A stretch of 64,000 bases of DNA from a plasmid. The first letter of the stretch is position 1. Each line of letters starts with the position of its first letter. The stretch lies in the sequence record AP029160.1; one strand, 5' to 3'. Below, piece after piece: positions 50,303 through 62,038 of the stretch. Made by a program: the position numbers and the translations under genes. The notes under the pieces are model-generated. The model saw nothing but the letters and a program-made list of their open reading frames with translations, had not been told where the DNA came from and did no database searches.

Positions 50303-50540
50303 GTGCATGGGAAAAATCGTTTGGAAGAGCAAGAACTCTCCGTTTTAGCACTTCATTTACTTCAATCTTCCTTAGTTTATATAAACACATTAATGATTCA
50401 AGACGTTTTATCTGAAAGCTATTGGTTTAGTTTAATGCAAAAGGATGATTTTAGAGCAATTACGTCTTTACTCCACAAGCATATTAACCCATATGGTAAA
50501 TTCACTTTAGATATGAATTTAAGAATTCCATTAAAAGATG
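50303..50540 (+). pseudogene. Tn3-family tnpA C-terminal fragment (third lineage), interrupted by the group II intron
   Basis: LSVLALHLLQSSLVYINTLMIQDVL...LLHKHINPYGKFTLDMNLRIPLKD. After the intron the frame would resume as ARIRVKNALAQY* at 52463..52499. Confidence 0.55.
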
Positions 50541-52462
50541 GTGCGCGAGGTGAGTAGAGAATCCCCGTTACCAGTGATTCCCCCTCCGCAGAACCCATCG
50601 TGCAGATTTCCCGCAATGGGCTCCCGATATAGAGCAGACCTCTCATTTCAGTGATGGGAGTAGTGATGTAGTTTTCCAAGAAGAGGGAAAACCAATTCGC
50701 TCAAGAAAGCTAATTAATTTCACCCAAGTCATTCCTTTTTGTGAACCTCGAAGTTTAAACCATTTGTATATAATCCGTTTACTGAAATAAATAAATCCAC
50801 TCACCCTACGATGATTGTCAGTCACTGCATGGTAGTTGATCCATCCACGAATAACTGAGATTATTCGCCCGAAAACTGCTGTTATATCTTTTGTATTACT
50901 ATTTTCTAAGAGATATTTTCTTAGCCCTTTGAGCTTAGCACTAAAACGATCTTTCCTACTAGTAAAATTAATTCGCCAATAGTTCTTCGTTGCAGCCTTA
51001 GCCCAGTAGCATGTAAATCCTAGAAAATTAAAAGATGGCAGTTTTCTTCCTTTGGTTCGTGCCCTTTGTGCAAGAACATTCCCGGCCGGAATTATTTGTG
51101 ATTTATCCAGATGAATTCTCAATCCAAATTTGCTCAAACGTTTAGGTAACACCTCGAAAAATCTTTTCGCTTCCAGCATACTCTGGAAAGTAAACACCAT
51201 ATCATCTGCATATCTCACCATTTCACATCGACCTTTTAAGTGTGTTTGTGATATTTCTTGAAACCATTTATCAATCACATGATGAAGATAAATATTTGCG
51301 AGAATTGGTGACACAATTGAACCTTGTGGGCAGCCAATTGTGTTTTCATTAACATTGCCATCTTTCATTATTGGCGCCCTTGCAAGTGTCATAATCAATT
51401 TAATGAATTTATTATCCGAAATTTTCATACGTAGAAAAGTTTCAAGATTTTCGTGAGGAATTTCGTTGAAATATTTACGTATATCCAATTCAACAATAGC
51501 TCCATGTTGATTGTAGAAAGTTTGCCTCGCCAATTCTTTAAGTGCCATGTGGCAATTTCGGTTTTCTCGAAAACCGAATGAAGTATTCAAGAATAATGGA
51601 TCGTAGATTTGAGTTAACAGTTTGCTAACAGCCATTTGGACAATTTTGTCTTTAAGACATGCTATTGCTAACGGTCTAGTGCTTCCATCTTCTTTGGGTA
51701 TTTCAGTTATTCTTGATGGTTTTGGAGCGTATTTTCCATTTCTGATTTTAGAAAGTAGATTTCTAAGGTTTGCTTGAAGATTGACTCTGTATTTCTCCTT
51801 TGTTACGCAATCAATCCCAACGGCTTTGCTTCCGTCGAGTTTGTTAAACATCTCCCACAGCATTTCAATATTTATAATGTATCCAAGATTATTGAATACG
51901 ATATCCTTATTGGAAGCTGATAACTCACCTATGCGTTTGAGTTTCGTTAACCATGTTTGTTCGCCTATGCTGTGTACGACCATTGTTTCCCTCATTCGCT
52001 CCCTATATCTGCCAGCCCTTCGCTCCATGCTCATTACGCAATTCATCACTACTACGGCCGACTCCGCCATCCATAAATTCATCCCACAAGACTTATGTTC
52101 GCAACACTTGAACTTGTAGTACCTATGAAACATAGGAAATAAATGGACTTCCCAAGTTCCGAGCATATCTCTTCCAACTCGCCAACGTCTCTAACTCCGG
52201 TGTTTGAAGCAGTTTGGATTTGTCAGAATAACCTCCCCACTTCTGTTGTCTGCAATGTCCGGTGACACCCCGACTCACACATCTACACGCTATCGGAACC
52301 AACTAACGTTCACCTTTCGGTTTTGGCTCTCTGGATTCGCTGTCTACGCTTAAACCTTGTTGTTGCCTTCAAGACTCCAAGACTCGCTACATAATGGAAC
52401 TGACTTCTCCTTTTATGACAGGACTTTCACCTGCAAGATATGCGCAGTTTTGCTTGGCGCAC
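50541..52462 (-). mobile_element. Group II intron, copy 1 (full length, ~1.9 kb)
   Basis: 5' GTGCGCC at 52462 (- strand). Domain V GAGCCCATTGCGGGAAATCTGCACGATGGGTTC at ~50570..50603 (- strand), then domain VI ending ...CGCGCAC at 50541. The intron-encoded protein lies inside. Confidence 0.75.
50643..51983 (-). CDS. Group II intron-encoded reverse transcriptase/maturase
   Basis: RT motifs including YADD. The ORF-track start at 52166 is upstream read-through of intron domains; the likely start is MVVHSIGEQ at ~51983. Confidence 0.85.
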   Translation of the reverse strand: MVVHSIGEQTWLTKLKRIGELSASNKDIVFNNLGYIINIEMLWEMFNKLDGSKAVGIDCVTKEKYRVNLQANLRNLLSKIRNGKYAPKPSRITEIPKEDGSTRPLAIACLKDKIVQMAVSKLLTQIYDPLFLNTSFGFRENRNCHMALKELARQTFYNQHGAIVELDIRKYFNEIPHENLETFLRMKISDNKFIKLIMTLARAPIMKDGNVNENTIGCPQGSIVSPILANIYLHHVIDKWFQEISQTHLKGRCEMVRYADDMVFTFQSMLEAKRFFEVLPKRLSKFGLRIHLDKSQIIPAGNVLAQRARTKGRKLPSFNFLGFTCYWAKAATKNYWRINFTSRKDRFSAKLKGLRKYLLENSNTKDITAVFGRIISVIRGWINYHAVTDNHRRVSGFIYFSKRIIYKWFKLRGSQKGMTWVKLISFLERIGFPSSWKTTSLLPSLK

Positions 52463-52749
52463 CCCGGATTCGTGTAAAAAACGCACTAGCCCAATATTAA
52501 AGCATTTCAATTTATTAATAGAAAATTTTAGTTCCCAGCTATGCTATCCCCAAATGTAACCGAATCATTCTCAGAGTCCTCAAGACAGGGATAAGACAAT
52601 TTCTCAAGAGCAAAGAATCAAAATAACCCAAGGTGTCAAAATTTCTTTTAATCCTAATATATAATATTTAAAAAAATTTTTCCATTCTAGAATAATTATA
52701 TATTTTTGTAGTTATTCCTTATCTCATCACTTATTCTAAGGAAAGTTTT

Positions 52750-52989
52750 ATGACTGATGTGCTTCCAGGAAAAGATTGTGATGGTACAGAAATTATAAGT
52801 GGTGATAAATTAATTGTTTTAGAAGATGTATATCAATCAGTAGAAAAAAAAGAGGATAATATAGTAGCTGCAAAAGATGATGTATTAGAATTTAGGAATG
52901 TTTTTCACAGTCCAGATCAATTAGAATGTCTTAATGAAACAAAAAATAAAGAAATTGTTATAAACAAACAACTAGTAAGAAAAATTTAA
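52750..52989 (+). CDS. Small acidic hypothetical protein upstream of the HNH gene
   Basis: 79 aa, 35 bp upstream of 53025. Confidence 0.25.
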   Translation: MTDVLPGKDCDGTEIISGDKLIVLEDVYQSVEKKEDNIVAAKDDVLEFRNVFHSPDQLECLNETKNKEIVINKQLVRKI

Positions 52990-53024
52990 TTTTATTTAAT
53001 TGCATTTATAAATTTGGGAAATCT

Positions 53025-60802: not shown

Positions 60803-61327
60803 ATTAGGAGTAAAACTATGAGCTGCTAGTTTTCCAGATCTTTTTTCTACTACTTCTAAAGATGAGAGTTGGGCAATTCTTCTACGAACTGTATTTTGTC
60901 CAGGAGGAGTTATATTTGCTTCCACACATCTTCTACGTACTTCTTGGATAATTTTTGAAATCTTTCTTTTTTGCTTATCTAAATAAAGCTCTCTTACTAC
61001 CTGATGAATTATTGTTTCTACATTTTCGTTTAATCTTGCTTTTCCTACACCTCCATTGGGTGGTTGTGGTGCCAATGAAGTTAATAATCCGCCAGAAGCT
61101 TTAAAACGTTCCAATAATCTTGATAAAGTGCGTTTCGATATGCCAAGATCTTTTGCTGCGGATTGTCTTTTTTTATCTGTTAATTTTGATATATTTAATA
61201 ACGGTTGAATTACTTTAGCTCTTCTTTGAGCTTCAGCCCAAGCCGAATCAGACAGTCTTACGGGACCAATTTCCAAAGAGGATGTCTTTAAATCGGTCTT
61301 TTCTTTTGTAAGATCCTGTTTTTCCAT
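60803..61327 (-). pseudogene. tniA: TniA N-terminal 175 aa (HTH region)
   Basis: LSDSAWAEAQRRAKVIQPLL...ISKRTLSRLLERFKASGG. Ends ...AAHSFTPN with the nucleotides CTCCTAAT adjoining the IS6 left end. The same 8 bp begin the fragment at 58369. Confidence 0.7.
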
Positions 61328-61490
61328 ATTTATAATCCTGTGCCAGGGAGTATGGAAATTTTAGCATATTAGGACAGGATCTATGGAAAAAACTTTTGAC
61401 ATCCTCTTTGGATAACTTATTGATTTTATTTCTGCCTATATGACATCTTCTTTGGAAAATGACATGCGCTTAAAAAAATACCCAAAGAAG

Positions 61491-61549
61491 GTGCGCGAGG
61501 TGAGTAGAGAATCCCCGTTACCAGTGATTCCCCCTCCGCAGAACCTTTT
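61491..61549 (-). mobile_element. Relic of a third group II intron copy: last 57 nt (domain VI) in minus orientation
   Basis: Identical to 50541..50597. Preceded by a degenerate Tn3 tnpA C-terminus-like sequence (…LENDMRLKKYPKK|G). Confidence 0.5.
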
Positions 61550-61552
61550 AAT

Positions 61553-62038
61553 TTTCTAGGATTTACATGCTACTGGGCTAAGGCTGCAACGAAGAACTAT
61601 TGGCGAATTAATTTTACTAGTAGGAAAGATCGTTTTAGTGCTAAGCTCAAAGGGCTAAGAAAATATCTCTTAGAAAATAGTAATACAAAAGATATAACAG
61701 CAGTTTTCGGGCGAATAATCTCAGTTATTCGTGGATGGATCAACTACCATGCAGTGACTGACAATCATCGTAGGGTGAGTGGATTTATTTATTTCAGTAA
61801 ACGGATTATATACAAATGGTTTAAACTTCGAGGTTCACAAAAAGGAATGACTTGGGTGAAATTAATTAGCTTTCTTGAGCGAATTGGTTTTCCCTCTTCT
61901 TGGAAAACTACATCACTACTCCCATCACTGAAATGAGAGGTCTGCTCTATATCGGGAGCCCATTGCGGGAAATCTGCACGATGGGTTCTGCGGAGGGGGA
62001 ATCACTGGTAACGGGGATTCTCTACTCACCTCGCGCAC
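61553..62038 (+). mobile_element. Group II intron 3' fragment (RT C-terminus plus domains V-VI) in plus orientation, 5'-truncated
   Basis: Identical to the reverse complement of 50541..51030; the ORF 61754..61936 equals the RT C-terminus; ends ...CGCGCAC at 62038. Confidence 0.65.

Follow-up and report, generated by a model that had tools for sequence, protein, structure and literature searches.

Introduction

RmInt1 of Sinorhizobium meliloti is an endonuclease-less intron that homes into the insertion sequence ISRm2011-2. Here we analyse a group II intron that is present in several copies in a stretch of plasmid DNA of 64,000 nucleotides (sequence record AP029160.1; 'the window' hereafter, numbered from its first letter), and conclude that it is probably a mobile, endonuclease-less member of a lineage that homes to the inverted repeat (IR) found at either end of Tn3-family transposons and that has here entered three copies of one IR-type repeat, which we call IR-A. 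As in RmInt1, the encoded protein comprises a reverse transcriptase (RT) and a maturase but no endonuclease, and the intron would home site-specifically into a mobile element through pairing of exon-binding with intron-binding sites (EBS and IBS); RmInt1 depends on replication for priming. Its target is the transposase reading frame of one insertion sequence, whereas the target considered here is the terminal repeat of a transposon family, in which the insertion point keeps a set distance from the tip.

Class C (IIC) introns, including the attC-targeting Kl.pn.I3, are also endonuclease-less and keyed to a recombination or structure motif of other mobile elements rather than to a gene. However, IIC introns lack EBS2, have an IBS1 of 3–4 nt and recognise a DNA hairpin, whereas in the lineage of the window's intron EBS1 and EBS2 both covary with the target, and no hairpin is evident by eye in the window's 5' exon. 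The insertion sequences IS4321 and IS5075 (IS1111 family) are reported to target the 38-bp IRs that bound Tn21-family transposons (Partridge and Hall, 2003). Their target, like that proposed for the window's intron, is a Tn3-family terminal IR that is split by the insertion, but they are DNA transposons with a DEDD transposase, whereas the window's element is an RNA-guided retroelement.

Among known systems, the closest relative is the 'ltrA' intron of Escherichia coli and Salmonella plasmids (NZ_LT985227.1; WP_159372952.1), which shares with the window's intron 59% protein identity, the Rfam D1-D4-6 type, a length of about 1.91 kb and the absence of an endonuclease. It is inserted in a Tn3-family IR, at 9 bp from the tip, and points outward. 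It differs in its target, a canonical Tn3 or gamma-delta-type IR, and in both EBS1 and EBS2; no description of its target preference was found in the literature searched. Reviews give three target classes of bacterial group II introns, namely, ordinary homing sites, terminators and attC sites, and start and stop codons appear as targets in a later paper; Tn3-family repeats are named in none of these sources. Targeted literature searches, incomplete in coverage and not including the intron database, yielded no description of group II introns in Tn3-family repeats.

One intact and two damaged copies of a group II intron

The element is a group II intron and, by all testable criteria, a member of the mobile bacterial group II intron family, as a preliminary description made from the sequence alone had proposed. 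Its parts, and the insertion sequence that cuts one of them, are the following.

50549–52462, minus strand: intron copy 1, complete, 1913–1914 nt, matched by the Rfam models, with the 3' end at 50549 or 50550
50643–51995, minus strand: intron-encoded protein (IEP), 450 aa, in domain IV; reverse transcriptase and maturase (X) domains, no endonuclease domain
55209–56631, plus strand: 5' part of intron copy 2 (intron nt 1–1423/4), 100% identical to copy 1 and truncated by IS6
56632–57451, plus strand: IS6-family element cutting copy 2, with the terminus GGTTCTGTTGCAAA at 56632; recognised from repeat families
61499–61545, minus strand: intron copy 3, a stump of the last 46–47 nt that begins exactly at the intron's sole GGTTCTG
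61546–62030, plus strand: 3' part of intron copy 2 (intron nt 1429/30 to the end), with the Rfam match to domains V and VI (DV/DVI)

The full-length Rfam model of domains D1–D4 (RF02005) matches both copies, at 52427–52185 (minus strand) and 55244–55486 (plus strand), with 81.7 bits against a gathering score of 49, and the DV/DVI model (RF00029) matches at 50625–50549 (minus strand) and 61954–62030 (plus strand) with 43.4 bits against a gathering score of 40. Domain V, correctly recognised in the preliminary description, folds as a hairpin, and a 5' GTGCG of the GUGYG type is present at 52462 and 55209. The IEP matches the Pfam families RVT_1 (PF00078; E = 9.2e-34) and, for the maturase domain, GIIM (PF08388; E = 2.8e-4), the latter with 21.2 bits, slightly under the Pfam cut-off of 23. 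No HNH match was obtained with Pfam, and the protein stops about 25 residues past the maturase domain; its relatives are 441–450 aa long. In the nr database, the IEP is 100% identical to BFD32266.1 of Pigmentibacter ruber, followed by metagenomic relatives with 88% and 73% identity and by a large group at 55–60% identity from Xenorhabdus, Photorhabdus, E. coli, Salmonella, Legionella and others; the window accordingly derives from P. ruber or a very near relative. Altogether 6642 homologues were retrieved, and the named ones are all called group II RT/maturase.

The copies had been described as differing in their state of decay, which proved accurate: one is intact, one is split by IS6 and one is reduced to the 46–47-nt stump. 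Copies 1 and 2 are 100% identical over 1424 nt, and copy 1 and the 3' fragment over 485 nt. Given copies identical at three sites, an intact open reading frame (ORF) and more copies in the same genome, the intron appears to have been mobile recently, and we infer that it may still be active. Among the nr entries of P. ruber GTC16762, BFD33597.1 and BFD33602.1 are the intron proteins of this window, and a second pair, BFD32266.1 (450 aa) and BFD32271.1 (402 aa), is encoded elsewhere in the genome. The members of this second pair are also five loci apart and may mark a second copy of the same bracketed segment. A scan of genome contigs with the intron protein, which did not reach P. ruber, returned distant reverse transcriptases only, and a scan of viral contigs returned one truncated member of the lineage and 79 unrelated introns.

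The 5' end had been placed at the GTGCG of 52462 and 55209, and the EBS/IBS covariation described below backs this junction (GUGCG in the RNA). By contrast, the 3' end previously set at 50541 is off by 8–9 nt. It lies at 50549/50550, in the sequence ...CUACUCAC(C): aligned to its relatives, the window's intron ends in ...CUACUCACC at 50549, where the Rfam DVI model match ends too. The usual AY rule for intron 3' ends would place it at 50550. In relatives L003/L018/L020 (85% nucleotide identity) and L112 (91%), L numbers being used where loci need to be told apart, similarity is lost directly past ...CUACUC(A/G)C(C). A metagenome contig, L017, consists of the intron with 3 nt and 1 nt of flank, a shape that we take as boundary evidence because an assembler yields such a contig for a multi-copy element. 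In the E. coli relative both ends are fixed, since deleting GTGCG...CUACUCAAC restores a 38-mer that is the canonical Tn3 repeat. Finally, the bulged A of domain VI lies 6–7 nt from a 3' end at 50549/50550, versus 15 nt from an end at 50541. Because the intron ends at 50549/50550, the 57 nt earlier assigned to the intron 3' end at the third site are 46–47 nt of intron plus 9–10 nt of exon; similarly, the 3' fragment described as 486 bp of intron exists but comprises 484–485 nt of intron plus 9–10 nt of exon.

The target repeat and its counterparts in relatives

With the boundaries so placed, the sequence occupied by the intron is a 37–38-bp unit, IR-A, which reads from outer to inner end GGTGCGCGA(G) followed by CCCGGATTCGTGTAAAAAACGCACTAGC, with 9–10 nt at the 3' side of the intron and 28 nt at its 5' side. 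Its parts are distributed as follows.

50540–50548, plus strand: outer 9(–10) nt of IR-A copy 1, GGTGCGCGA(G), the 3' exon of intron copy 1; identical at three sites, then diverging
52463–52490, plus strand: inner 28 nt of IR-A copy 1, CCCGGATTCGTGTAAAAAACGCACTAGC, the 5' exon of intron copy 1; exact match to copy 2, identity ending at 28 nt
52491–55180, no strand assigned: segment of 2.69 kb between the two inverted inner parts, with four ORFs without family assignment and the repeat IR-B
55181–55208, minus strand: inner 28 nt of IR-A copy 2, the 5' exon of intron copy 2; exact match to the inner part of copy 1
61490–61498, plus strand: outer 9(–10) nt of IR-A copy 3; identical at three sites
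62031–62039, minus strand: outer 9(–10) nt of IR-A copy 2; identical at three sites

The inner 28 nt occur in two exact copies within the window, inverted and 2.69 kb apart, where none is expected by chance. Exactly 28 nt of 5' flank are common to intron copies 1 and 2, in agreement with the shared 5' exon reported for them. Past this point the inner flanks of the two copies show no similarity above that of shuffled sequence, and the outer flanks of sites 1, 3 and 4 are alike no more than shuffled sequence either; homology of the inner flanks past 28 nt, or among the outer flanks, was accordingly rejected. The degenerate tnpA C-terminus that had been seen at site 3 does not survive this comparison, the similarity of the outer flank being at chance level. 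In an assembly graph built from independent reads, breaks fall on the edges of IR-A as well.

Two further likenesses involve the outer part of the repeat. On the strand opposite to that of the intron, it reads GGTGCGCGAG (50540–50549) and resembles the intron 5' end with the preceding G, GGTGCGCCAAG (52453–52462). As RNA, GCGCAC of the 3' exon (+4 to +9 counted from 50550, +3 to +8 from 50549) is complementary to intron nt 1–6, GUGCGC; five of the six positions are kept in L004, and the complementarity is absent in L020, L112 and the E. coli relative.

The nature of the occupied sequence emerges from the relatives. In the E. coli plasmid NZ_LT985227.1 (L015; 43.7–45.7 kb, 'ltrA'), an annotated Tn3 carries the intron within its tnpA-proximal 38-bp IR, at 9 bp from the tip, directly past the tnpA stop codon and on the same strand, that is, in sense. 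The joined exons of this relative form the canonical Tn3 38-mer, which at least 5000 plasmids contain without interruption and with 100% identity. The same E. coli intron occupies the bla-proximal Tn3 IR of an NDM-5 plasmid, near blaTEM-1 (L023), and a gamma-delta-like IR (L009), and in Salmonella (L024) an intron directly follows a Tn3-family tnpA. Enterobacter, Legionella, Xenorhabdus and metagenomic (L014) members have 5' exons of the ...(T)TAAG/CG...TTTTCG... type and 3' exons of 8–10 nt that end in ...ACCCC or similar; a Vibrio relative, in which only the 5' exon is readable, shows the same ...TTTTCG type. Thus, in all lineage members with readable junctions the intron lies 8–10 bp from the tip of a Tn3-family-type IR and points outward; in these relatives it is found inside the terminal inverted repeat, in sense direction downstream of tnpA or bla. 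Since relatives occupy the same spot in proven Tn3-family ends, the lineage appears to be specialised on the ends of these transposons, not on the transposase gene. The exons of the close relatives L004, L112, L020 and L019 are homologous to the IR-A unit. In L112, a Tn4430-like repeat tip lies 48 nt upstream of the intron site; an inverted partner of the 5' exon was looked for in L019 and L020 and rejected.

One pair of lake metagenome contigs stands apart. L018 (identical to L003) and L020 are 99.96% identical over the intron and 0.5 kb of 3' flank, and their 5' flanks differ from position –5 upstream, one being antisense inside the DDE region of a tnpA and the other IR-A-like. Because L003/L018 matches L020 so closely but carries another 5' flank, it may have arisen by recombination between intron copies or as a chimera of the assembly, and it was rejected as clean evidence of a second target inside tnpA.

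Pairing of the intron with its target

The guide sequences of copy 1 were assigned by alignment and covariation.

52258–52263, minus strand: EBS1 (ACCGGA), pairing with 5' exon positions –6 to –2 (UCCGG), 5 bp
52284–52289, minus strand: EBS2 (CGUGUA), pairing with 5' exon positions –14 to –9 (UACACG), 6 bp

The covariation test used an alignment of 11 members, in which the loop at about intron nt 200–206 (EBS1) was compared with exon positions –7 to –1 and nt 174–179 or thereabouts (EBS2) with –13 to –9. Standard pairs occupy 83.5% of the cells, compared with 50.7% in shuffles (none of 500 reached the observed value) and 30–43% when the partner columns were slid by 1–3. Double-change cells number 44, against 15.9 in shuffles. 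L004 carries the compensatory pair CGCGUA/UACGCG at EBS2/IBS2. The IBS/EBS assignment recommended earlier as a check thus gives 5 bp for EBS1 and 6 bp for EBS2 in the window, and the pairing covaries across the 11 members. Because it does so, recognition is best understood as ordinary RNA-guided homing, with the guides following the repeat of each transposon type. A conserved T-run at about –14 to –19 could be a protein contact. The intron is not of class C: EBS2/IBS2 is present and covaries, and inspection by eye, without folding, reveals no hairpin in the 5' exon.

Is IR-A a transposon end?

The window's own case is less clean than those of the relatives, and a number of observations weigh against IR-A being a transposon end entered by the intron. 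In sequence, IR-A has a GGTG tip and CTAG inside, as opposed to GGGG and TAAG in Tn3-family IRs. Its tip-anchored identity to five proven Tn3-family IRs is of borderline significance, with p of about 0.05, and is seen solely in the correct orientation; this test, which replaced an uninformative alignment test with free end gaps, gives p = 0.0004 for the Legionella target. A G.A mismatch opposes EBS1 at position –1 of the window's target. For none of the pairings of the three IR-A copies is there a 5-bp target duplication (flanks AAGAT, AAGAA and TAAAA). No cognate Tn3-family tnpA for IR-A was found in the window, its three tnpA genes or remnants having other ends or lying outside the repeat, nor is there a tnpA within 7–13 kb of the intron in L019, L020 or L112. 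An uninterrupted IR-A 38-mer was found neither in the window, nor in plasmids by BLAST, where the 38-mer hit chance 18-mers only, nor in the scanned metagenomes (0 matches); a match in a Xanthomonas plasmid was dismissed as an unrelated operator-like inverted repeat. Nevertheless, the T-run and the position of the intron in IR-A agree with those of the relatives, and by comparison with these, the window's IR-A is likely to be a true transposon end.

The surroundings of copy 1 bear both on this question and on the target originally proposed.

50303–50539, plus strand: Tn3-family tnpA remnant, the last 79 codons or so; PF01526, E = 4.6e-12, profile positions 325–389 of 389; homologues found
52514–52551, minus strand: IR-B, GGGGATAGCATAGCTGGGAACTAAAATTTTCTATTAAT, a second terminal repeat of Tn3-like type, not interrupted; occurs once in the window

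In the tip-anchored comparison, IR-B resembles the five proven Tn3-family repeats with p of about 0.001. Without the IR-A unit and the intron, the distance between IR-B and the PLKD codons of the remnant would be 61 nt, the spacing in Tn3 being 60 nt, so that IR-B is probably the remnant's own end. IR-A copy 1 sits between the tnpA remnant and IR-B as if the 38-mer and the intron had been inserted alone, which adds to the difficulties listed above: a simple transposon end fails to explain this placement. An adjacent deletion or inversion by the element that owns IR-A is possible, but leaves IR-B unexplained. A miniature element of 99 bp formed by IR-A and IR-B was considered and rejected, with 10 of 38 positions identical in a hand comparison and no duplication.

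According to the preliminary description, the homing site was the antisense of the last 13 or so codons of a Tn3-family tnpA, and sites 2–4 were decayed copies of it. Copy 1 does adjoin a true tnpA remnant, a frame can be read across the junction (...KDGAR/ARIRVKNALAQY and a stop), and the 5' exon of L004 can be read as RIRVKSPVAYF and a stop, with two synonymous changes. However, the remnant, although confirmed by PF01526, adjoins copy 1 only, at the outer end of IR-A and outside the repeat, and hence is not what the intron targets. Related Tn3-family transposases stop 4–10 residues past the LPI(E) motif, which leaves the C-terminal reading ARIRVKNALAQY and a stop without family support; the proposed extension GARARIRVK occurs in 0 of 191 transposase matches, the two exons are not contiguous tnpA sequence in homologues, and with the boundary at 50549 the frame reads ...GARPGFV and a stop. 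Thus the intron cannot be said to interrupt the C-terminal coding region of tnpA. The shared sequence ends sharply at 28 and 9–10 nt, forming a 37–38-bp unit that is present three times with unrelated flanks and whose 5' exon recurs beside non-tnpA DNA; similarity to tnpA does not exceed chance in the outer flanks at sites 3 and 4 or in that of L004; and in the relatives the intron lies downstream of tnpA, in sense and in the IR. A target in the antisense 3' end of the tnpA frame is, consequently, very improbable. What holds of the supposed preference for a transposon gene is the link to transposons, whereas the gene gives way to the terminal repeat as the target.

Two further explanations dispense with IR-A as a site that the intron entered repeatedly, and to neither do we assign much probability. 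Copies 1 and 2 might be one inverted segmental duplication, for instance IS6-mediated, that included the 28 nt of flank by chance, as their 1452 nt of 100% identity, their inverted arrangement and the abundance of IS6 rearrangements in the region would allow. Yet no IS6 end lies at the 28-nt boundary, the three separate outer parts have different flanks, both boundaries together delimit a unit of 37–38 bp to which the exons of L004 and L112 are homologous, the graph of the independent assembly is broken at these edges too, and the second protein pair BFD32266.1/BFD32271.1 points to further copies elsewhere in the genome; such a duplication is therefore a rather remote prospect. The other proposal, which we regard as similarly improbable, is that the 38-mer was not a pre-existing target but hitch-hikes as exon sequence with the intron in one 1.95-kb unit. 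It would account for the lack of an empty 38-mer in the window, plasmids and metagenomes, for the absence of target duplications and for the appearance of copy 1 as a unit inserted in the tail of another transposon (61 versus 60 nt to IR-B). It is at odds with the relatives, which enter pre-existing IRs that are abundant when empty, and with the EBS/IBS pairing, which is that of ordinary homing, and we know of no mechanism that moves a group II intron with exact exon stubs of 28 and 9 nt. Homing of the intron to a Tn3-family-type terminal repeat, entered three times here, remains the explanation that we consider probable.

A possible course of insertion

Under the preferred explanation of homing to a terminal repeat, the intron, about 1.91 kb long and with a small ribozyme, would read IR positions of about 10–23 through EBS1 and EBS2 pairing, insert 9(–10) bp from the tip and point from the interior of the transposon outward. 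Owing to this orientation, read-through transcripts from tnpA or bla could carry the intron and splice it out. The insertion would part the tip of the IR from its inner part and probably disable that end. In the window, copy 1 would have stayed intact, copy 2 would have been split by IS6 activity, and copy 3 would have been cut to a stump that is joined head-to-head with the 3' portion of copy 2.

Introns without an endonuclease rely on DNA replication for their primer (Zimmerly and Semper, 2015). It is conceivable, although in our judgement unlikely, that the lineage is fixed at 9 bp because it uses replicative transposition, the transposase substituting for an endonuclease and the intron spreading with each move of the transposon. 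Speculatively, once strand transfer has occurred, synthesis from the target 3'-OH located at the tip of the transposon would proceed inward on the strand complementary to the transferred, intron-bearing strand; the extension would meet the intron after about 9 nt, and the 3'-OH would serve as the primer. Endonuclease-bearing intron proteins cut the bottom strand at +9/+10, the same distance as the 9-bp offset.

IS6 rearrangements and other features of the window

The 3' truncation of copy 2 had been attributed to IS6, and an IS6 inverted repeat is indeed located at 56632. The IS6 assignment draws on near-identical copies (96–97% identity) at 57549–58368 and 59983–60802, whose transposases match DDE_Tnp_IS240 at about 1e-45. 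The intron segments 55209–56631 and 61546–62030 probably come from one copy, because only CCAT(C) is absent between them. The fusion of the copy 3 stump to an oppositely oriented 3' fragment is, as described, head-to-head, and lies at 61545/6. The stump begins at GGTTCTG, which occurs once in the 1.9-kb intron and is identical to the initial heptamer of the IS6 terminus; a breakpoint would land on this motif by chance about once in 1900. The suggestion that an IS6-like sequence at the DV/DVI junction contributed to the rearranged segment 61491–61566 is in this way supported as a positional coincidence, and the breakpoint may stem from use of a pseudo-end by the transposase or from recombination at microhomology. 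Because no 8-bp duplication accompanies the IS6 copies examined near the intron, we regard the region as heavily rearranged. Between 10236 and 64000 the window holds at least ten copies of the 820-bp IS6-family element, 96–100% identical and in part within 1846-bp composite repeats. IS6 ends lie on one strand at 10236, 12082, 15859, 37276, 40770, 42616, 56632, 57549, 59983 and 63182, and 11 more are on the other strand.

Several further transposon remnants are present. A fragment of a Tn7/Tn5053-type transposition module, with a Mu-transposase C-terminal/rve protein and a TniB ATPase, occupies 58341–60091 (plus strand) and is cut by IS6 on both sides. A nearly full-length Tn3-family tnpA (6171–9103, minus strand) has an adjacent resolvase gene (9297–9830, plus strand); a second resolvase gene lies at 26515–27078 (minus strand), and a third tnpA, a C-terminal remnant, at 38240–38608 (plus strand). 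The ends of these other Tn3-family elements differ from IR-A and IR-B. Pieces of a Tn4430-like terminal repeat (GGGGTACCGAGC...ACGGAAAAAAGGCCCTCTAAG) are located at 36917–36949 and 62120–62157, and at 36946–36949 two transposon tips stand 6 nt apart (CCCC TACTAG GGGG). Tn4430-like pieces also occur in L112 (582–633 and 1014–1080), a metagenome/SRA contig with a 91%-identical intron.

The segment between the two inverted inner parts of IR-A contains, within 52750–54980, ORFs of 79 aa and of 375 aa, the latter with a CxxC...EHIIPEWL motif, and, on the opposite strand, two overlapping ORFs (132 and 148 aa); Pfam and PADLOC gave no match for any of the four. On either side of the intron-bearing region, an ORF of 233 aa (49356–50057, minus strand) has a weak match to the pertussis toxin S1 ADP-ribosyltransferase (E = 0.004, below the cut-off), and one of 255 aa (62232–62999, minus strand) a weak match to the StcE beta-sandwich domain.

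Implications

If true, an intron lineage keyed to Tn3-family IRs, and inserted equally far from the tip in repeats of widely differing sequence, would represent a further specialised target class of group II introns. The constant 9-bp offset bears on how endonuclease-less introns obtain a primer. For annotation, the case implies that short 'exons' common to several copies of an intron can derive from the ends of a transposon and need not be pieces of a gene. Tn3-family transposons bear much of the plasmid-borne resistance load, and an insertion that separates the tip of the repeat from the inner part should affect the mobility of the transposon; an intron residing in Tn3 repeats could, furthermore, act as a lineage marker.

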